64,000 nt of DNA from Anaeromyxobacteraceae bacterium (GTDB taxonomy: Bacteria; Myxococcota; Myxococcia; Myxococcales; Anaeromyxobacteraceae): positions 1,216,001 to 1,280,000 of the forward strand of contig JASGHJ010000001.1 of the NCBI GenBank assembly GCA_047602405.1, given 5' to 3'. Positions 13,560 through 47,696 of this stretch are shown in pieces; the first letter of the stretch is position 1; each line of letters opens with the position of its first letter. The position numbers and the translations under genes were made by a program. The notes under the pieces are model-generated. The model worked only from the letters and a program-made list of their open reading frames with translations. It was not told the DNA's origin and made no database searches.

Positions 13560-14006
13560 CTACTTCGACGGCGCCGGCGCGGGCGGCTGCTGCGCGGCCG
13601 CGCCCGCGGCCTCGTTCCGCTCGCCACGGCGCTCGACGCGCTCGCCCCGGCGCTCGCGGCGCTCACCCTGCCGCTCCATGCGGTCGCCGCGCCGCTCCAT
13701 CCGCTCGCCCTGGCGCTCCATCCGCTCCCCGCGCCGCTCGGCGCGCTCGGCCGCGATCGGGTGGCCGTTCGCGTCGAGCTTCTCGGCGCGCTCGTGCAGC
13801 CGCTCCCCGCGCTCCTCGCGACGCTCGCCCCGCGCCTCCTTGCGCTCGCCGCGGTGCTCGCGGCGCTCGCCCTGACGCTCCATCCGCTCCCCGCGGCGCT
13901 CCTGGCGCTCGCCCCGGCGCTCGACGCGGGTCGCCTCGTCGGCGCGGCCGGCGGCGGGGAGGGACAGCAGGGCGGCGGCGAGGACGGTCGTGACGATGCG
14001 GTTCAT
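13560..14006 (-). CDS. Secreted Arg/Glu/Gly-rich heptad-repeat protein
   Basis: ATG 14006 with GGAG RBS, signal peptide, repeated ERRGERx units. Confidence 0.7.
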   Translation of the reverse strand: MNRIVTTVLAAALLSLPAAGRADEATRVERRGERQERRGERMERQGERREHRGERKEARGERREERGERLHERAEKLDANGHPIAAERAERRGERMERQGERMERRGDRMERQGERRERRGERVERRGERNEAAGAAAQQPPAPAPSK

Positions 14007-39980: not shown

Positions 39981-40442
39981 TCAGGCGTCCGGATCGCCCT
40001 CGAAGTAGTCCGCCTGCTTCGCCTTCTCGAAGATCCACCGCTTCCCGGTCGGCTGCGCCCCGAGCACGAACGCGATCTTGCCGGAGTCGGGGTACTCGAC
40101 CACGTCGTGCCCGAAGGCGGCGGAGAGCCCGAGGTACCGGAACGGCTCCCTGCCCTCGTTGACGAGCTGGTGCGCCGGCCCGCCGGGCGGGAACGACACG
40201 TAGTCGCCGGGGCCGACCTCCGTCGTCGCCTCGGGCGTGCGCACCAGCGCCTTGCCGGAGAGCACGTAGAGCGCCTCCTCGGTGACCTGGTGCGCGTGGA
40301 GCGGGAACGACTTCTTGCCCGGCGCGAGCTCCCAGAGCCCGGCCCTGAGCTTCTCGCCGCCGAGCTCCATCCGACGCTGCGAGTACTTCCCGCGCTGCAG
40401 CGAGTCGGCCCAGTTGCCGGTGCCGGACTTGACGATCTTCAT
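39981..40442 (-). CDS. Cupin domain protein
   Basis: PLHAH..EEALYVLSG, GD...FP.G..AHQLVN, YPDSGK. Confidence 0.88.
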   Translation of the reverse strand: MKIVKSGTGNWADSLQRGKYSQRRMELGGEKLRAGLWELAPGKKSFPLHAHQVTEEALYVLSGKALVRTPEATTEVGPGDYVSFPPGGPAHQLVNEGREPFRYLGLSAAFGHDVVEYPDSGKIAFVLGAQPTGKRWIFEKAKQADYFEGDPDA

Positions 40443-40463: not shown

Positions 40464-40500
40464 CGCCCCTCGTCTCCGCCCGCCTGCGGCGGGCTACGCT
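40464..40500 (-). repeat. 3' part of the REP-like element split by the IS110 insertion
   Basis: Minus strand AG|CGTAG-CCCGCC-GCA-GGCGGG-CGGAGACGAGGGGCG; the 5' part lies at 42055-42068. Confidence 0.85.
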
Positions 40501-40517
40501 GCTTCGAAATGCCGGGG

Positions 40518-41772
40518 TTAGGAGGTGACCGCCTCGGGTGTCTGTGAGGTGACGGTCACGCTATAGCCGAGGCGCTCAAGGCGGCGAACGAGGTTCTTGG
40601 CGACGCGCTTTTCGTCGACCCGGTCGAGGTAGGTGTCCCCGAGGTCCTCGTACGGTACGTGTTTCGTGAGGAATCTCATAGGCGGCGTTGAGGATCTTGT
40701 GGGCGATGGCGAAGGTGGCTCGCTTGTGTCCTCGGCGGGCCTTGAGGCGGAAGTACTTGTCTCGCAGGTAGGTCTTCTTGGTGCGGATGGCTGCGCCGGC
40801 AGCCTCGACCAGGGTCGACCGGAGGTGAACGTTCCCCTTCCGCGAACGCCCGGAGCGCCGCTTCCCGGCCGATTCGTCGTTCCCGGGGCAGACGCCAGCC
40901 CAACTCGCCAGGTGGCGCGGGCCGCCGAAGACGGACATGTCGGGGCCGATCTCAGCGAGAAGTGACGCGCTGGTCTGGACCTTCACGCCCGGAATCGTCG
41001 AAAGCAGCTTGACCTGCTCGCGATAGGGCTCGAGTCGGCGCTCGATCTCCCTCTCTAGCGTGTCGACGTCGCGGTCAGCAGCGTCGAGCCGGTCGAGCTG
41101 TAGCCGCAACATGTACCGGTGGTGGTCGCGGAGCCGGCCGTCGAGGGCGGCCTCGAGCTCGGGGATCTTCTTACGTAGGAGCCCTTCGGCGAGCTTCGCG
41201 AGGTTGCGCGGGTCGGATTCGCCATCGGCCATCGCTCGCAGCATCGCCATGCCAGACTTGCCAAAGACATCCGAGGCAACGCTTGCGAGCTTCACGTTCG
41301 CGGTCTCGAGGACCTTCTGTAGTCGATTGCGCTCGGACGTCCGGGCCTGGACGACCGAGCGTCGGTACCGAACGAGGTCCCGTAGGTCGCGAAGGTAGAG
41401 CGGCGGCACGTAGCTCTTGCGGATCAGCCCCATCCTCACGAGTCGGGCAATCCACTCCGAGTCCTTCACGTCCGTCTTGCGGCCTGGGACGTTCTTCATG
41501 TGCTGCGCGTTGCCAACGACGAGCTCGAGCTCGCCCGCCGACTCCAGCACCGCGTAAACGGGCTTCCAGTAGACGCCCGTGCTCTCCATGGCCACGTGCG
41601 TGACGTGCTCCTCGCGCAGCCACTCCACGAGCGCCAGCAAGTCGCGCGTGAACGTCGAGAACTCCCTCACGCACTTGCGCAGCCTGGAGCCCTCTCCCAG
41701 CAGCACGCAGGCCGTCACTTGCTCCTTGTGAACGTCGAGTCCACAGACCCGATCGACAACGATTCCTTCCAT
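40518..41772 (-). CDS. IS110 family recombinase/transposase, +1 frameshift near 40672
   Basis: DEDD motifs GLDVHK, MESTGVYWKP, KTDVKD; LSTIPGV, SWAGVCPGNDESAGK. The corrected frame ends ...LERLGYSVTVTSQTPEAVTS* (about 417 aa). Confidence 0.93.
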
Positions 41773-41788
41773 GACCACCTCCGGGGAA

Positions 41789-41966
41789 GGAGGCGGTCGC
41801 TGCGCCGCGGGGTAGCTTCTAGGACACTGCTTCACGCCCTTCCCAGGCATGCATCTGCCCAGGTACGGCACACCGTGGTACCCATTCGCAGCGCGGGCCG
41901 GTCTCGGGGACGGGGTTCCTGGCAGGACCGCCGAACGTAGCAACGGCCTTCTGAGCGACCACCTCC
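41789..41966 (-). ncRNA. Putative IS110 bridge RNA (target-binding loop 41896-41948; donor-binding loop about 41821-41883)
   Basis: A 13-bp closing stem encloses two stem-internal loop-stem modules; loop sequences match target (GCTACG, CCCCGAG) and donor (GAAGCAG). Folded by eye; boundaries approximate. Confidence 0.75.
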
Positions 41967-42054
41967 GAGGTCGATCGCTACACCGGGACCGCCCGCGCGC
42001 TCAACCAACGGCAGGCATTTCATGCCCCCCGGTGGACGTGTCCGTCCATGAGGT

Positions 42055-42068
42055 CTCGGGGCGAACGG
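42055..42068 (-). repeat. 5' part of the REP-like element split by the IS110 insertion
   Basis: Minus strand CCGTTCGCCCCG-AG. Confidence 0.8.
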
Positions 42069-42161: not shown

Positions 42162-43958
42162 ATGGCCACGAAGAAGCGGTCCCTCATCGCGCCGCCCGGC
42201 GGCCCGGCCTCCGGCCCGCAGGCGCGCCTCGCGCAGATGCGGATCGTCGCGCAGGACCCGTCGGTGCGCGGGAGGCACGGCGAGATCCTCACGGCCGTGG
42301 TCGACGTGCCGGCGGAGACGCTCGCCGCCGGACCGCGCGGCTACCGCGTCCACGTCATCGACTACGACGCCTCCACCGGCCGGCTCTACCCGCCGGTCGC
42401 CTATGACCGCGAGGCCGGAGGCTGGCGCGCCGATCCCGCCGCCGAGGTGACCGAGGAGGTCGTCCTCCGCGACACGGGCTTCCACGCCCAGAACGTCTAC
42501 GCGATCGTGATGCGGACGCTCGCGCGCTTCGAGTTCGCGCTCGGGCGGCGCATCGGCTGGGGCTTCGACGTCACCGGCCACCAGATCAAGGTGGCCCCCC
42601 ACGCGTTCGCGGACGCGAACGCCTTCTACTCGCGCCGCGACGAGGCGCTCCTCTTCGGCCACTTCCCCACGCGCGACGGGAAGGGCCACGTCTTCAGCTG
42701 CCTCTCCCACGACATCGTCGCCCACGAGACGAGCCACGCCGTGCTCGACGGGCTCCGCAAGCGCTTCATGGACCCGTCCTCGCCGGACCAGGCCGCGTTC
42801 CACGAGGGGTTCGCCGACGTGGTCGCGCTGCTCTCGGTCTTCGCCGTGAAGGAGGTCGTGCGCGTGCTCGTCGACGTGCCCGCCGGCGGGCGGGCCGACG
42901 CGCGCGGGCCGCTGCGCGACGTCTCGGTCGCGGCCCTGCGCCGCTCGGCGCTGTTCGCGCTCGGCAAGCAGTTCGGCCGGGAGATGGGCGCCATCGGCCG
43001 CAGCGCCCTCAGGGCCTCGGCGGACCTCGTCGCGCGGCCCGGGCTGGCGCGGCTGCCCGAGTTCGACGAGCCGCACCGGCGCGGGGAGATCCTCGTGGCC
43101 GCGATCCTGCACGCCTTCCTCGCGGTCTGGTCGCACCGGCTCACCGCCCTCCGCAGGCACGGCCCCGTCGATCGCGACCGCGCGGCCGAGGAGGGCTCGG
43201 ACATCGCCGACGACCTCCTCACCGTCGCCATCCGCGCGCTCGACTACTGCCCGCCGGTCCACCTGCGCTTCGGCCACTTCCTCTCCGCGATGGTCACGGC
43301 CGACCGCGAGGTCCGGCCGCGCGACGCGCGCTACGGCGTGCGCGACGCGCTCGTCGCGGCCTTCGAGGCGTTCGGCATCGGGCACGAGTCGGTGGGCCGC
43401 AGGGGCGAGGCCCGCGTCGACCCGGGCTGGCAGCAGGCCACGAAGCGGTTCGACTACGACCGCACCCGCTTCGAGTCGATGCAGCGCGATCCGGACGAGG
43501 TCTTCCGCTTCGTCTGGGAGAACCGGAGGGAGCTCCGGCTCTTCTCCGGCGCCTACACGCGGGTCCTCTCGGTGCGGCCCTGCGTGCGCGTCGCCCCGGA
43601 GGATGGCTTCACGCTCAGGGAGACGGTGGCCGAGGTCTTCCAGCAGCTCTCGATGCTCGCCGGCGAGCTCGGGGCGCACGGCATCGAGAAGCCCGAGGGC
43701 ATGCCGGACGACACGGCCATCATGCTGCTCGGCGGCGTGACGCTGGTCTTCGACGAGTACGGCCACGTGAAGTACACGATCGGCGACTCGGTCCACGACC
43801 CGTCGCGCCCCAACGTGCAGGCGCGGCAGAGCGAGCGCCTGAAGAGCCTCTGGGACCACGGCTTCTTCCGGAGGACCGCGGCGGCGGAGCGGCGCTTCTC
43901 GGCGGTCCACCGGGCGCGCAGCCTCGACCCGGTCACGCAGGCGAAGGAGGCGTGGTGA
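42162..43958 (+). CDS. Gluzincin (M4/M36-like) metallopeptidase, no signal peptide
   Basis: NAFYS, DIVAHETSH (HExxH), AFHEGFAD third-ligand motif. Confidence 0.8.
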   Translation: MATKKRSLIAPPGGPASGPQARLAQMRIVAQDPSVRGRHGEILTAVVDVPAETLAAGPRGYRVHVIDYDASTGRLYPPVAYDREAGGWRADPAAEVTEEVVLRDTGFHAQNVYAIVMRTLARFEFALGRRIGWGFDVTGHQIKVAPHAFADANAFYSRRDEALLFGHFPTRDGKGHVFSCLSHDIVAHETSHAVLDGLRKRFMDPSSPDQAAFHEGFADVVALLSVFAVKEVVRVLVDVPAGGRADARGPLRDVSVAALRRSALFALGKQFGREMGAIGRSALRASADLVARPGLARLPEFDEPHRRGEILVAAILHAFLAVWSHRLTALRRHGPVDRDRAAEEGSDIADDLLTVAIRALDYCPPVHLRFGHFLSAMVTADREVRPRDARYGVRDALVAAFEAFGIGHESVGRRGEARVDPGWQQATKRFDYDRTRFESMQRDPDEVFRFVWENRRELRLFSGAYTRVLSVRPCVRVAPEDGFTLRETVAEVFQQLSMLAGELGAHGIEKPEGMPDDTAIMLLGGVTLVFDEYGHVKYTIGDSVHDPSRPNVQARQSERLKSLWDHGFFRRTAAAERRFSAVHRARSLDPVTQAKEAW

Positions 43959-45358
43959 TGGCGCCCGCCCTGAAGGCCGCGCGGCTGTTCACGTACCGGG
44001 TCGGCTTCGGCGACTGCTTCCTGCTCCGGCTCGAGTACGAGGACCGGCCGCGGCACGTGCTCGTCGACTTCGGCACGACCTCCGCCGCGATCGACCCCGC
44101 GGGCCCGTCCCTCGAGGACGTCGCGAAGGAGATCGCGGCCGACTGCCAGCGACCGGGAGGTCGCTCGGGAACCCAGGGCGGGACGCTCGACGCCATCGTC
44201 GCGACGCACCGGCACCGGGATCACGTCTCCGGCTTCGCGGGTGCGTCGTGGAAGATCCTGAAGGCCTTGAAACCCGGCCTCGCCGTCATGCCCTGGACCG
44301 AGGCGCCGGACGCGCCGGTCGACGGCGGGGTCGTCCCGACCGGCACCCGGCTCGCGATCGGCGAGGCCTCCGTCGCCCACGCGCGGACGCTCCAGGCGAT
44401 CCACCGGGTCGCGGCCGCCGCCGTGAAGGAGCTCGAGCGCCGCGACGGGGAGGACGCGCGCGACGGCGGGACGGAGGAGCCCGACGAGGACGCCGCGTCC
44501 GCCTGGGACGCTGCGGACCTCGGCCCGCCGTCGGTGAACGCGCCCTTCCCGAAGCGGCTCGCCGCGCAGCTGCGCTTCGTCGGGCTCGACAACCTGCAGA
44601 ACCCGGAGGCGATGGCGAACCTGCGCGGCCTCCCGCGGGTCGACTACGTCTGCTACGGATCGAAGACGCGGCTCGAGGACGTGCTCCCCGGCGTGAAGGT
44701 CCGCGTGCTCGGGCCGCCCACGCTCGCGCAGTCGGACGCCATCCGCAGGCAGCGCACCGTCGACCGCGACGAGTTCTGGCACGTCATGGCCGCCGCCGGC
44801 GAGCAGGTCGTGCGCCCCGGCGGCCCGGACCTCTTCCCCGGCGTGAAGACCGTCGGCCCGAGCGCGCTGCCGCTCGAGACCCGCTGGTTCCTGAGGCGGC
44901 TCGACGCGCTCCGCGCCGAGGAGCTGTTCGGCATCGTCCGCGCGCTCGACGACGTGCTCAACAACACGAGCGTGATCCTGCTCCTCGAGCTGCCGGTGAA
45001 GGGCGGGAAGCCGCGGCGGGTGCTGCTCCCCGGCGACGCGCAGCTCGAGAACTGGAGCTACGCGCTCGGGCGGCCGGGCGTGAAGGAGGCGCTCGCGGGC
45101 GTCGACGTCCTCAAGGTCGGCCACCACGGCAGCCTCAACGCCACGCCGAAGACGCTCTGGAACCTGCTCGAGAAGCGCGGCGGGCCCGGGAAGCGCGGCC
45201 GGCTGCGCACCGTGCTCTCGACGCGGAAGGGGAAGCACGGCTCGGCGCAGCGGGGCACCGAGGTGCCGCGCAAGCCGCTGCTCGAGGCGCTCCAGAAGGA
45301 CTCGGAGCTGACCTCGACGATGAAGGGCAAGGCGGTGCCGCCGATCGAGCTCCTGTAG
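43958..45358 (+). CDS. ComEC/Rec2-like MBL-fold metallo-hydrolase
   Basis: VGFGDCFLL, VDFG, THRHRDH, NNTS, LLPGDA, LKVGHHGS; TGATG overlap with AAGGAGG RBS. Confidence 0.85.
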   Translation: MAPALKAARLFTYRVGFGDCFLLRLEYEDRPRHVLVDFGTTSAAIDPAGPSLEDVAKEIAADCQRPGGRSGTQGGTLDAIVATHRHRDHVSGFAGASWKILKALKPGLAVMPWTEAPDAPVDGGVVPTGTRLAIGEASVAHARTLQAIHRVAAAAVKELERRDGEDARDGGTEEPDEDAASAWDAADLGPPSVNAPFPKRLAAQLRFVGLDNLQNPEAMANLRGLPRVDYVCYGSKTRLEDVLPGVKVRVLGPPTLAQSDAIRRQRTVDRDEFWHVMAAAGEQVVRPGGPDLFPGVKTVGPSALPLETRWFLRRLDALRAEELFGIVRALDDVLNNTSVILLLELPVKGGKPRRVLLPGDAQLENWSYALGRPGVKEALAGVDVLKVGHHGSLNATPKTLWNLLEKRGGPGKRGRLRTVLSTRKGKHGSAQRGTEVPRKPLLEALQKDSELTSTMKGKAVPPIELL

Positions 45359-45376: not shown

Positions 45377-47696
45377 TCAGCGGACCGTGAACGTCGCGTG
45401 GAGCGATCGCGGATCGGAGGCGTCGGCCGAAGCCCCGACCCGCACGGCGTAGGCGAGCTTCTCGACCCTCATCGCCCCCGCCCCGGCGTCCCACCACGCG
45501 AGATCCTCCGCGCGGATGGAGAGGGACACCGGCCGGGTCTCCCCGGGCGCGATCTCCGCGACGCGGGCGAAGGCCTTCAGCTCCTGCGCCGGCCGGCCCC
45601 ACGCGCCCGCCACGGCGCTCCCCGGGTAGCTCACGTAGGCCTGCACCACGTCCGTGCCGGTCACCGGCCCGGTGTTGGTGACGTCCACCGTCAGCACGAC
45701 CTCGCCGTCGTCGGCCACCACCGGGGACTTCACCGAGAGGTTGGAGTAGGCGAACGTGGTGTAGCTCTGGCCGAAGCCGAACGGGTAGCGGGGCGTGATG
45801 CCTCCGCGGTCGAGCCACCGGTAACCGTGGAAGTAGCCCACCGCGACGTCCTCCGGAGTGGTGTTCGGGAACGGCGGGAGGTCCGCCTCCGCCACGGGGA
45901 AGCTCTGCACGAGCCGGCCGCTCGGGTTCAGGTCGCCGAAGACGAGCTCCCCGAGCGCGGTCCCCTCGCTCATGCCGCCGAACCACGCCATGAGGAGCGC
46001 GTCCACGCCGGTGACCCACGGATCGACCCGCACCGCCCCGCCGGCTCTTCACGATCACCACCACGGCGAGGCCGGGGTCGGCCTGCTTCAGGGCGACCGC
46101 CGCGGCGATGTTCGCGAGATCGCGGGCCGGGAGGGCCAGGGAGGCGCGGTCCTTCCACTGGCCCTCCTCGCCGGAGGCGCTCCTCGCGAGATCGGCCGGG
46201 TGGTAGGCCGCGATCACGAAGACGACCTGCGCGCCGGCGAGCTCCGCCTCGTGACCGGCCACGGTCGGGAACGTGAGCGCGCACCTCGCGGCCGAACCGC
46301 AGGCGGTCTTCGACGGGTTGGAGGCGCCGAGCGCAGCGGCGAGGCCCTCGTAGGGCGTCACCACGAGGCCGGGGTCCAGGGCGTACGTGGCGGACTCGCC
46401 CCGGTCCCCCGTCAGCTCGGCGTCCGCGAAGCTCCCGATCACGGCGAGCTTCGTCACGGCCTCGCGTGAGAGGGGCAGCACGTCGTCGGCGAGCGCCGCG
46501 GTGGGGCCGTTCTCCAGCAGGACCACGCCCTCCTCCGCGGCGCGCAGCGCGAGCGCGCGCGCGTCCGCGCCTTGCACGAGCCTGGGCGACGTGGAGGCCG
46601 GGTGGTCGAGGAGGCCGAACGCGACCTTGCGGCTGACGATCCGCAGCGCCGCCTCGTCGACGTACCGCGCGTCCACCACGCCCTGCTCGACCAGGCGCAC
46701 GAGGGACGCGCCGTAGGGGTAGCAGGGCCCGAAGTCACCGCACCACCCGCTGAAGGGCATGTAGACGTCGAGCCCTGCCGCCAGCGAGCGGAGGTCGCTC
46801 GCGTTCGCGAACCATTCGGAGACCGTGAAGCCGGTGAACCCCCAGCCGCCCCGGAGCACGCCGCGGAGGAGCGCCTCGCTGACGGTCACGTAGCTCCCGT
46901 TCACGCGGTTCGCGGGGGTCTGGACGGCCGCCGCGCCCTCTTTCACGGCGCGTGCGAGCGGGGCGAGGAGCACCTCGTGCAGGGTCCGTTCGTCCGCGAC
47001 GGCGTTCGCGTAGAACTTCGAGTCCTCGAGCCCGAGCTGACCGAGCTGGCCCGCGCACGCCATCACGCGGTACGTGTCCTCGAGGGGCTGGTCGGGGTCG
47101 GCAGGATCCACCGCCGCGGGATCGTGCTGCGCGCCGCGCACGAACGCCGCGCCCATCTCGCCCGTGAGGAACACGTCCTCGCCGTAGGACTCCTGCGCCC
47201 GGCCCCAGCGAGGATGGCGGACCGGGTCGAGCAGCGGCGCGACCAGCACGTGGTAGCCGGCGTACCGCACCTCGCGGGCGATCGCCTTGCCGATCCGACG
47301 CTCGAGCTCGAGATCCCAGGACGCCGCGCGCGCGGCCGCCACCGGGAACACGGTGGAGCCCTGGCCGTCGCCCCGCAGGCGCCGGGAGGCCATGCCGCGC
47401 GAGCCCCAAAGGTAGCCGAGCCCGGGGATGCCGAGGCGGGGCTCGTCCTCCTGCTGGTCCGCGTTCATCGGGTCGTACTGGCCCTTGCCACTCATCTGGC
47501 GGACCTTCTCCTCGAGCGTCATCTGCGCGACGAGCGCCTGCGCGCGGCGCACGGCGGGATCCGCGCAGGGCACGCCGGCGCGATCGGGGAGCGTGCAGTC
47601 GTACGGGTCGGGCTCCGGGCTGCTGGAGCCTCTGCAGGCCGCCGCGGCGAGCAGCGCCACGACGACGACGAACGTCGACCGATGCCGGGGGAGCAT
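45377..47696 (-). CDS. GH3 beta-glucosidase-like lipoprotein with Fn3-like tail, +1 frameshift near 46043
   Basis: MTLEEKV, FP...ARAASWD, PRWGRAQESYGED, GVVLLEN; second frame AWFGG, PSGRL, GYRW, YPFGFGQSYTTF, ELKAF. Confidence 0.85.

Follow-up and report, generated by a model that had tools for sequence, protein, structure and literature searches.

Element Structure and Copies

The window, that is, the whole 64,000-bp stretch of an Anaeromyxobacteraceae genome analysed here, contained an IS110-family element of 1,554 bp between two 2-bp cores (40499–40500 and 42055–42056). Its junction strings began at 40491 (CT at 40499–40500) and 42046 (CT at 42055–42056) and each occurred once in the window, exactly where a preliminary description had placed them in proposing an IS110 element at a core inside a REP-like palindrome. 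That description gave the core as CT, which was correct for the forward strand at both junctions. The transposase is encoded on the minus strand, and therefore the core in the orientation of the element is AG and the junction previously called left is the right end. The left core is the AG at 42055–42056 (minus strand; CT on the plus strand), which was common to target and donor while the flanking letters differed, and the right core is the AG at 40499–40500 (minus strand), located by the junction and by comparison of the copies.

All parts of the element were read on the minus strand. A left non-coding end of 282 nt (41773–42054), identical in 4/4 copies, preceded the transposase gene (40518–41772), which was followed by a right end of 17 nt (40501–40517) comprising an inverted-repeat arm (40506–40513) and then the 5 nt predicted to be read by the donor guide (40501–40505). 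The long left and short right ends (282 vs 17 nt) are a trait of the IS110 group in the strict sense, and with only 17 nt at the right end, the long non-coding end 3′ of the transposase that characterizes the IS1111 group was absent. The GC content of the element was 66%, compared with 74% for the genome.

A genome search detected four copies, 98.7–99.0% alike, at C1:163933–165490, C1:1073470–1075027, C1:1256499–1258056 (the window copy) and C2:3206831–3208397. The last of these carried an in-frame 9-bp duplication within the transposase gene. The ends, the split point in the repeat and the direction were identical in all four copies, and beyond the short shared core no copy showed a target duplication. 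Comparison of the flanks thus gave the same boundaries and the same target in 4/4 copies, and removal of the element with one core restored an intact repeat in each of them, as had been predicted. The predicted circle junction was absent from the genome assembly, none of the 24 sequencing runs listed (best share 0.06, no RNA run with it among them) contained the element, contigs of five different runs did not include it, and the exact left-junction pattern was found in 0 metagenome contigs. No close element was detected in 36 other genomes of the genus, where one partial match reached 39%; at E <= 1e-120 the clade was present in 7 of 400 genomes of the phylum.

Target Repeat and Insertion Locus

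The insertion split the repeat into a 5′ piece, the left target flank (42057–42068, minus strand), whose last 5 nt correspond to the second target guide described below, and a 3′ piece (40464–40498, minus strand) composed of CGTAG, a variable 6-bp hairpin and a conserved 3′ arm. The cut was located after CCGTTCG(C/T)CCCG and before CGTAG in all four insertions. In every split repeat the two halves retained their complementarity (CGCCCC/GGGGC in three copies and CGTCCC/GGGAC in one), so that each copy represents a single clean insertion. The repeat family had 262 matches in the genome against 3 in one block-shuffled genome, and 162 of the 176 exact CCCGAGCGTAG sites carried the 3′ arm of the repeat. 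Four further intact members were present in the window (14247, 20151, 21037, and 22145), which also contained a tandem array with a 21-bp period at 13597–13980. The repeat was found in 5/5 genus genomes searched, with 26–132 exact 19-mers in each. The variant fitting the fifth guide letter occurred in 3/4 copies and in 84/262 repeats, numbers too small to interpret.

An abundant short palindrome with a tag is characteristic of GTAG-tagged REP families, and the position at this locus was intergenic. The GTAG/CGTC-tagged families described by Di Nocera (2013; PMC3733652) likewise have GTAG beside a variable hairpin and hundreds of intergenic copies, single or paired. Neither Anaeromyxobacter nor any name beginning with Myxococc- appeared in the text of that paper, on which the comparison is based. 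For the REP-associated tyrosine transposase expected with such families, Y1_Tnp had six weak matches in the genome, one over the cut-off.

At the orthologous site of the related genome G010, where the neighbouring protein was 94% identical, the element was absent, together with the 56 bp that make up the repeat. In contigs of a related organism from four sequencing runs, position 40368 was joined to 42104 with 124 letters between them, which is 55 letters short of an empty site holding the repeat. The empty site expected in relatives was therefore confirmed for the element only, and a repeat-holding empty allele of this exact locus was found neither in G010 nor in the contigs of the related organism. 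According to the comparison with G010, the repeat preceded the element and was likewise inserted here: it was gained at this site (or lost in the relative), and the element entered it afterwards.

Beside the element, a two-gene unit on the plus strand (42162–45358) encoded a 598-aa protein with an HExxH motif and no Pfam match, and a 468-aa protein with a weak match to the metallo-beta-lactamase fold, below the cut-off. Its distribution in the genus was patchy, with strong matches in 3 of 36 genomes and three weaker ones.

Transposase Gene and Frameshift

The transposase matched PF01548 (E 1e-32), PF02371 (E 8e-23) and NF033542 (293 bits, cut-off 140), each above its cut-off, and the catalytic residues D13, E63, D101, D104, and S301 were all present. 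Judged by these profiles and residues, the enzyme is an IS110 DEDD recombinase.

The frame shifts after codon 367 in a GATC context (40668–40677), and the window ORF stops at 398 aa, with the conserved tail encoded in the next frame as far as 40518. All four copies were frame-shifted at the same site and stopped at 398–401 aa. The two closest homologues (93 and 91% identical) were whole at 417 aa, and by these homologues the enzyme has ~417 aa, within the 395–455 range given for the IS110 subgroup (PMC11187229). A programmed frameshift was ruled out because relatives carry one continuous frame.

The shift in the four copies is probably an assembly error. The extra letter was not uniform, being A in three copies and T in the window copy, and a comparison of this assembly with 114 kb of open frames in G010 yielded 36 frame-breaking clusters, in which 9 of 19 single-base insertions were the same change of GATC to GAATC or GATTC. 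The 10-letter form occurred 15 times in this genome, 0 times in G010 and 2–3 times in three others; plain 9-letter sites were similarly numerous in this genome (342) and in G010 (327). Alternatively, the frameshift could be genuine in all four copies, which would now be disabled or have been moved by a truncated enzyme, making the element a recent fossil. Four hits of four at a background of ~3% leave some weight with this reading: only 11 other sites of the 9-letter context carried the extra letter, against 342 without it, and four independent errors would be improbable unless a longer context or repeat polishing drove them. Real mutation is nevertheless the less likely reading, given the unequal letter, the recurrence of the same GATC change elsewhere, the absence of the 10-letter form from G010, and the intact homologues.

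Single-base insertions at GATC thus recurred in this assembly, and GATC may be methylated in this genome; no publication on nanopore insertion errors at GATC was found. Frameshifts and GATC/GATT differences in this genome call for caution. In the window, a gene on the minus strand (45377–47696) was interrupted at about 46030 by a frameshift that is probably an assembly error as well; from its translation we take the product to be a beta-glucosidase-like lipoprotein.

Predicted Bridge RNA and Its Guides

A bridge RNA was predicted in the left end at approximately 41815–41998 (minus strand), with putative limits. A consensus fold of 13 left ends contained 24 pairs, 10 of which had compensatory changes; the window slice in it began past the 5′ strand of the long helix, which sits at 41998–41989. 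This strand is predicted to pair with 41901–41891 as the outer helix of a target loop, with a donor loop after it. The guides were mostly unpaired in the fold, and the second target guide lay unpaired inside the long helix. The left end gave no Rfam match at E <= 1, and a scan of its linear form showed neither a sigma-70-like promoter nor a terminator.

Three putative guides were located, all on the minus strand. The first target guide (41934–41942) is the complement of the right flank (6 nt exact) and of the core, with one G-U wobble. The second target guide (41901–41909) comprises 5 nt of the left flank and the AG core (41909–41903), followed by a 2-nt handshake that repeats the two bases with which the left end begins. 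The donor guide (41825–41833) comprises the terminal 5 nt of the right end and AG (41833–41827), followed by a possible 2-nt handshake. This spacing fits the IS621 template LLLLLLLCC / RRRRRCCHH / rrrrrcchh (PMC11208160), and the template (7+2, 5+2+handshake) fits only if the strand opposite the transposase is used to read both target and donor.

Exact matches of this kind read equally well on both strands, and the guide might accordingly be an antisense RNA of the left end, comparable to Asr9 of ISPpu9, so that the sense-strand polarity would be a mirage; ISPpu9 and ISPpu10 do produce antisense RNAs over this region (PMC12288879). Judged by eye, most guide mismatches replaced C by U or A by G, substitutions that form wobbles only in a sense RNA, and the sense strand places the target loop before the donor loop and the handshake after the core, as in IS621. 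We consider an antisense guide very improbable.

Covariation in Relatives

Evidence for the ends came from 12 multi-copy groups among 80 genome loci. The shared sequence began a few letters before AG in 11 of the 12 groups and terminated at AG in all nine groups with comparable right ends. Tandem joints of right end, AG and left end, observed in the relatives L089, L103, L119, and L211, fixed the position of the core. In these four relatives, as in L092 and L067, the insertion was at the end of a second element of the clade or fused to it, an arrangement that yields tandem joints and left ends without a gene. Nineteen loci of one relative (L037–L058, CAWIII contigs) belonged to a Solirubrobacterales genome; many had common long downstream flanks and some faced each other 3–4 kb apart, which suggests compound elements or that some other mobile element served as the insertion site. 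Another relative, L210, was inserted in what appeared by eye to be the 5′ region of a group II intron.

In a first test, both ends were callable in 59 of the 80 loci, giving 31 non-redundant left ends including that of the window; four were dropped as tandem or cut, and 27 were kept. Most of this set belonged to one actinobacterial group, in which the target was hardly more than 3–4 nt plus AG. Agreement was high for the second target guide with the left flank (100/108, shuffles 46.8), for the donor guide (106/108, shuffles 66.7) and for the handshake (53/54, shuffles 41.5). The first guide showed no significant covariation in this set (36/108 vs 30.0, p 0.08).

A second test started from 176 loci, of which 131 had both flanks and formed 46 clusters at 75% protein identity. 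Both ends were called in 32 of the 46 clusters by a fixed rule that was blind to the guides and demands AG and GAAA/TTTC-like letters; 24 of the 32 called left ends were supported by the guide and eight were not. With the window element left out, 31 relatives less than 75% identical to each other in protein were analysed. The second target guide agreed with the left flank at 101/124 positions (shuffles 33.7, maximum 56 in 20,000), the donor guide with the right end at 122/124 (shuffles 48.3), and the target handshake with the start of the left end at 53/62 (shuffles 31.6). The first guide agreed with the right flank at 82/124 (shuffles 58.4, maximum 74), where the best of three registers was taken for the data as well as for each shuffle. 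The donor handshake was not significant (31/62 vs 26.4, p 0.10). Three controls in the IS621 order stayed at chance (52, 30, and 26, vs 52.4, 30.2, and 26.7).

The relatives are kin, so that the shuffle p-values are overstated; neither kinship nor the end rule explains the asymmetry between the two guide orders. The reverse, IS1111-type order, with the guide complementary to the top strand first, was far above chance, and the bottom-strand-first order of the IS110 group in the strict sense (IS621, ISEc21) was not found. The covariation supports three guide slots and one handshake slot, whose letters change with those of the target flanks, of the right end and of the start of the left end. The closest relative with DNA context, L031 (61% identical, Thermoanaerobaculia), occupied the homologous point in a related repeat and carried guides altered to match it.

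Recognition of the repeat sequence or its cruciform by the transposase itself, with the left-end matches as leftovers of end duplication, was also considered. The second guide, core and handshake do form a 9-nt copy of the left junction, and in ISPpu10 the target stem-loop adds specificity (preprint 10.64898/2026.03.19.712850). Against this, the matches kept to fixed slots within a conserved fold while following unrelated targets in many phyla, and RNA guidance has been shown for IS621, ISEc21, and ISEc11 (PMC11208160, PMC11187229). Protein-only targeting therefore appears extremely unlikely, while the target hairpin may add to guide-based recognition.

End Recognition

An 8-bp subterminal inverted pair was formed by GAAATGCC at 40506 and GGCATTTC at 42014, 5 and 34 nt from the cores, respectively. 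The left arm, GAAATGCC on the minus strand (42014–42021), lies 34 nt inside the left end and overlaps a local hairpin (42014–42026). The asymmetric repeat had been noticed in the preliminary description at these positions, and it proved to be conserved and covarying in relatives: 24/24 elements with a supported left end had an inverted repeat of 5–8 bp, 31–37 nt (left) and 5 nt (right) inside. The first four letters of the repeat were partly forced by the selection rule; positions 5–6 were not, and they agreed at 42/48 against 18.2 in shuffles. Since it recurs and covaries in 24 elements, the repeat is real and clade-wide. It matches neither the absent or 2–3-bp inverted repeats of the IS110 group in the strict sense nor the 11–13-bp repeats of the IS1111 group, 7 and 3 bp from the ends.

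The left end also carried a hairpin (42033–42048, minus strand), the 6-bp stem of which began 7 nt inward of the core, and in relatives the hairpin kept its position while its sequence was free. Among the 24 elements, the mean stem within the first 30 nt of the left end was 5.0, compared with 3.6 in shuffles; the stem was at least 5 bp in 18/24 and started at positions 5–9 in 18/24.

A fourth guide, facing the left end, was unsupported in the 24 elements (best p 0.04 among 10 registers). The RNA may nevertheless be an IS621-like four-guide RNA with donor and target turned round, in which the fourth guide is short or rich in wobbles and the hairpin and inverted repeat serve transcription or RNA folding instead of end recognition. 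In the window element the expected slot contains GGT, three bases that match the start of the left end; three neighbouring registers reach p ~0.04; the left inverted-repeat arm also closes a local hairpin; and mutation of the left-end palindrome of ISPpu9 did not stop circle formation (PMC12288879). Covariation in the fourth slot was weak (39/96 vs 31.9) beside that of the other three guides, and folding of the left-end RNA alone does not explain why the two arms of the inverted repeat, separated by 1.5 kb, covary. We give this four-guide reading somewhat less than an even chance.

Comparison with Known Systems

Targeting of REP sequences by IS110 elements is established (PMC11208160), and the handshake concept has been described (PMC11208158). 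The present element shares with IS621 and ISCro4 (PMC11208160, PMC11208158) a DEDD plus serine enzyme, a left-end RNA (predicted in the present case), a target loop before the donor loop, the 7+2 and 5+2+handshake spacing, a REP target, and a 2-bp core without further duplication. Unlike the present element, IS621 has a CT core along the transposase with the left guide first, a 2–3-bp inverted repeat immediately around the donor, and an evident guide for the left donor side; here the core is AG and the order is reversed. The enzyme of IS621 has 328 aa, against ~417 aa here, and similarity is weak (E 1.6e-16). The preliminary description had drawn the parallel with IS621, which holds for the family, the REP target and the 2-nt core. 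With an AG core and the reverse guide order the likeness is only partial, and ISPpu9 is the closer precedent.

ISPpu9 of Pseudomonas putida (PMC12288879) belongs to the IS110 group and has an upstream non-coding end, AG at both ends and a REP target; its circles are joined at AG, and it has one short palindrome within the left end and another directly downstream of the target AG, as in the present element. Its host and its repeat are different, and it was described without inverted repeats. The passages compared map no guides and contain neither "binding loop" nor "bottom strand".

Among the IS1111 group, ISEc11, ISPa11, and ISKpn4 (PMC11187229) resemble the element in having the guide complementary to the top strand first and a subterminal inverted repeat. 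However, their RNA is downstream and not upstream, their inverted repeats are 11–13 bp, 7 and 3 bp from the ends (5–8 bp, at 31–37 and 5 nt, in this clade), and their enzymes have 330–350 aa (~410–417 aa in this clade). For IS1111 seekRNAs that study reported the complement of the top strand first, with the reverse in one tested IS110 member, and stated that exceptions in end length and probably further subfamilies exist. The clade combines the predicted RNA position and the enzyme length of the IS110 group with the guide order of the IS1111 group.

The genome itself carried four copies of a second IS110-family element (C2, near 481951, 981994, 1994108, and 2509758). It was of canonical IS1111 type, with 13-bp inverted repeats, a long downstream end and an intact frame, and inserted at AG in another repeat with 16 copies. 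Its downstream region had the same AG core and guide slot order as the element studied here. The target repeat of this second element often occurred in divergent pairs ~100 bp apart (C2:519115/519225, 2411825/2411931, and 2890073/2890142; C1:2243951/2244095).

The ISfinder entries ISAzo28, ISGka2, ISAfe3, ISArsp3, ISSsu10, ISCla1, ISCsa3, ISCARN97, and ISAisp4 had the same motifs by eye (MESTGVYWKP, VPGRKTDV, and GNxESAGKR) and the same length class. By eye, the ISfinder group of ISAzo28, ISGka2, ISAfe3, ISArsp3, and ISSsu10 is most likely the catalogued clade of the element. No description of a guide RNA, target or mechanism for these entries was found in the portions of the literature covered; the "ISGka2" of PMC8024623 is an IS701 element and irrelevant here.

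In the published text covered, no description was found of an upstream RNA that has IS1111 polarity. Nor was the guide layout described in the portions covered of 10.1101/2025.10.25.684509, 10.1101/2024.06.21.599552, 10.64898/2026.08.31.748434, PMC13626964, 10.1101/2025.05.14.653916, 10.64898/2026.08.14.744561, or PMC3733652. No publication was found on an IS110-REP pairing in taxa named Myxococc- or on the GTAG palindrome of Anaeromyxobacter. A new pairing of an IS110 element with a repeat had been suggested from this locus, and the common target of all four copies, the IS110 DEDD protein and the lack of the pairing in print bear this out. The pair is an ordinary new member, as is REP pairing in general, and the guide layout is the less ordinary part.

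Proposed Mechanism

Taken together, the data argue, with a probability of about 0.85, for an element inserted at the fixed AG/CT core of a REP-like repeat that is likely a bridge recombinase with a left-end RNA and a polarity reverse to that of IS621. By analogy with IS621, ISPpu9, and ISEc11, the ends of the element would be joined at AG into a circle, or be copied out as one. The first loop of the left-end RNA would open the repeat on both sides of AG, and the second would hold the circle junction on its right-end side. Strands would then be exchanged at the core by the DEDD and serine sites, leaving one core on each side with nothing else duplicated. Since the handshake comes after the left-flank guide, the template strand of the transposase would be exchanged first, which mirrors IS621 and agrees with the order reported for seekRNAs of the IS1111 group. 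The repeat predates the element and offers ~176 matching sites, nearly all in repeats. The left-end hairpin 7 nt inside and the displaced inverted repeat are candidates for recognition of the left donor side by the protein, and a role of the target hairpin such as that reported for ISPpu10 (preprint 10.64898/2026.03.19.712850) is speculative.

A broader proposal, which we put forward tentatively and hold to be rather unlikely as a whole, is that the clade represents a third bridge-recombinase architecture spread over many phyla. It would unite a left-end RNA with IS1111 polarity and an AG core, and three working guides with a left donor side read by the protein through the hairpin and the displaced inverted repeat. 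The target would be ~4 nt plus AG in some branches and would have been tuned onto one widespread REP family here and in an acidobacterial relative.

Implications

The apparent lack of a fourth guide poses a testable question on donor-end recognition. Published rules tie the position of the RNA to the order of its guides, upstream with the IS621 order and downstream with the reverse. The clade of this element breaks that tie, which bears on the origin of the IS110 and IS1111 groups and on guide prediction. The clade is large, accounting for 7,109 of 8,000 scored candidates at E <= 1e-100, and because of the reverse guide order, the IS621 template, if used for mining or reprogramming it, would yield inverted guides. 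Its members, with their slots mapped, form a table of natural reprogramming.
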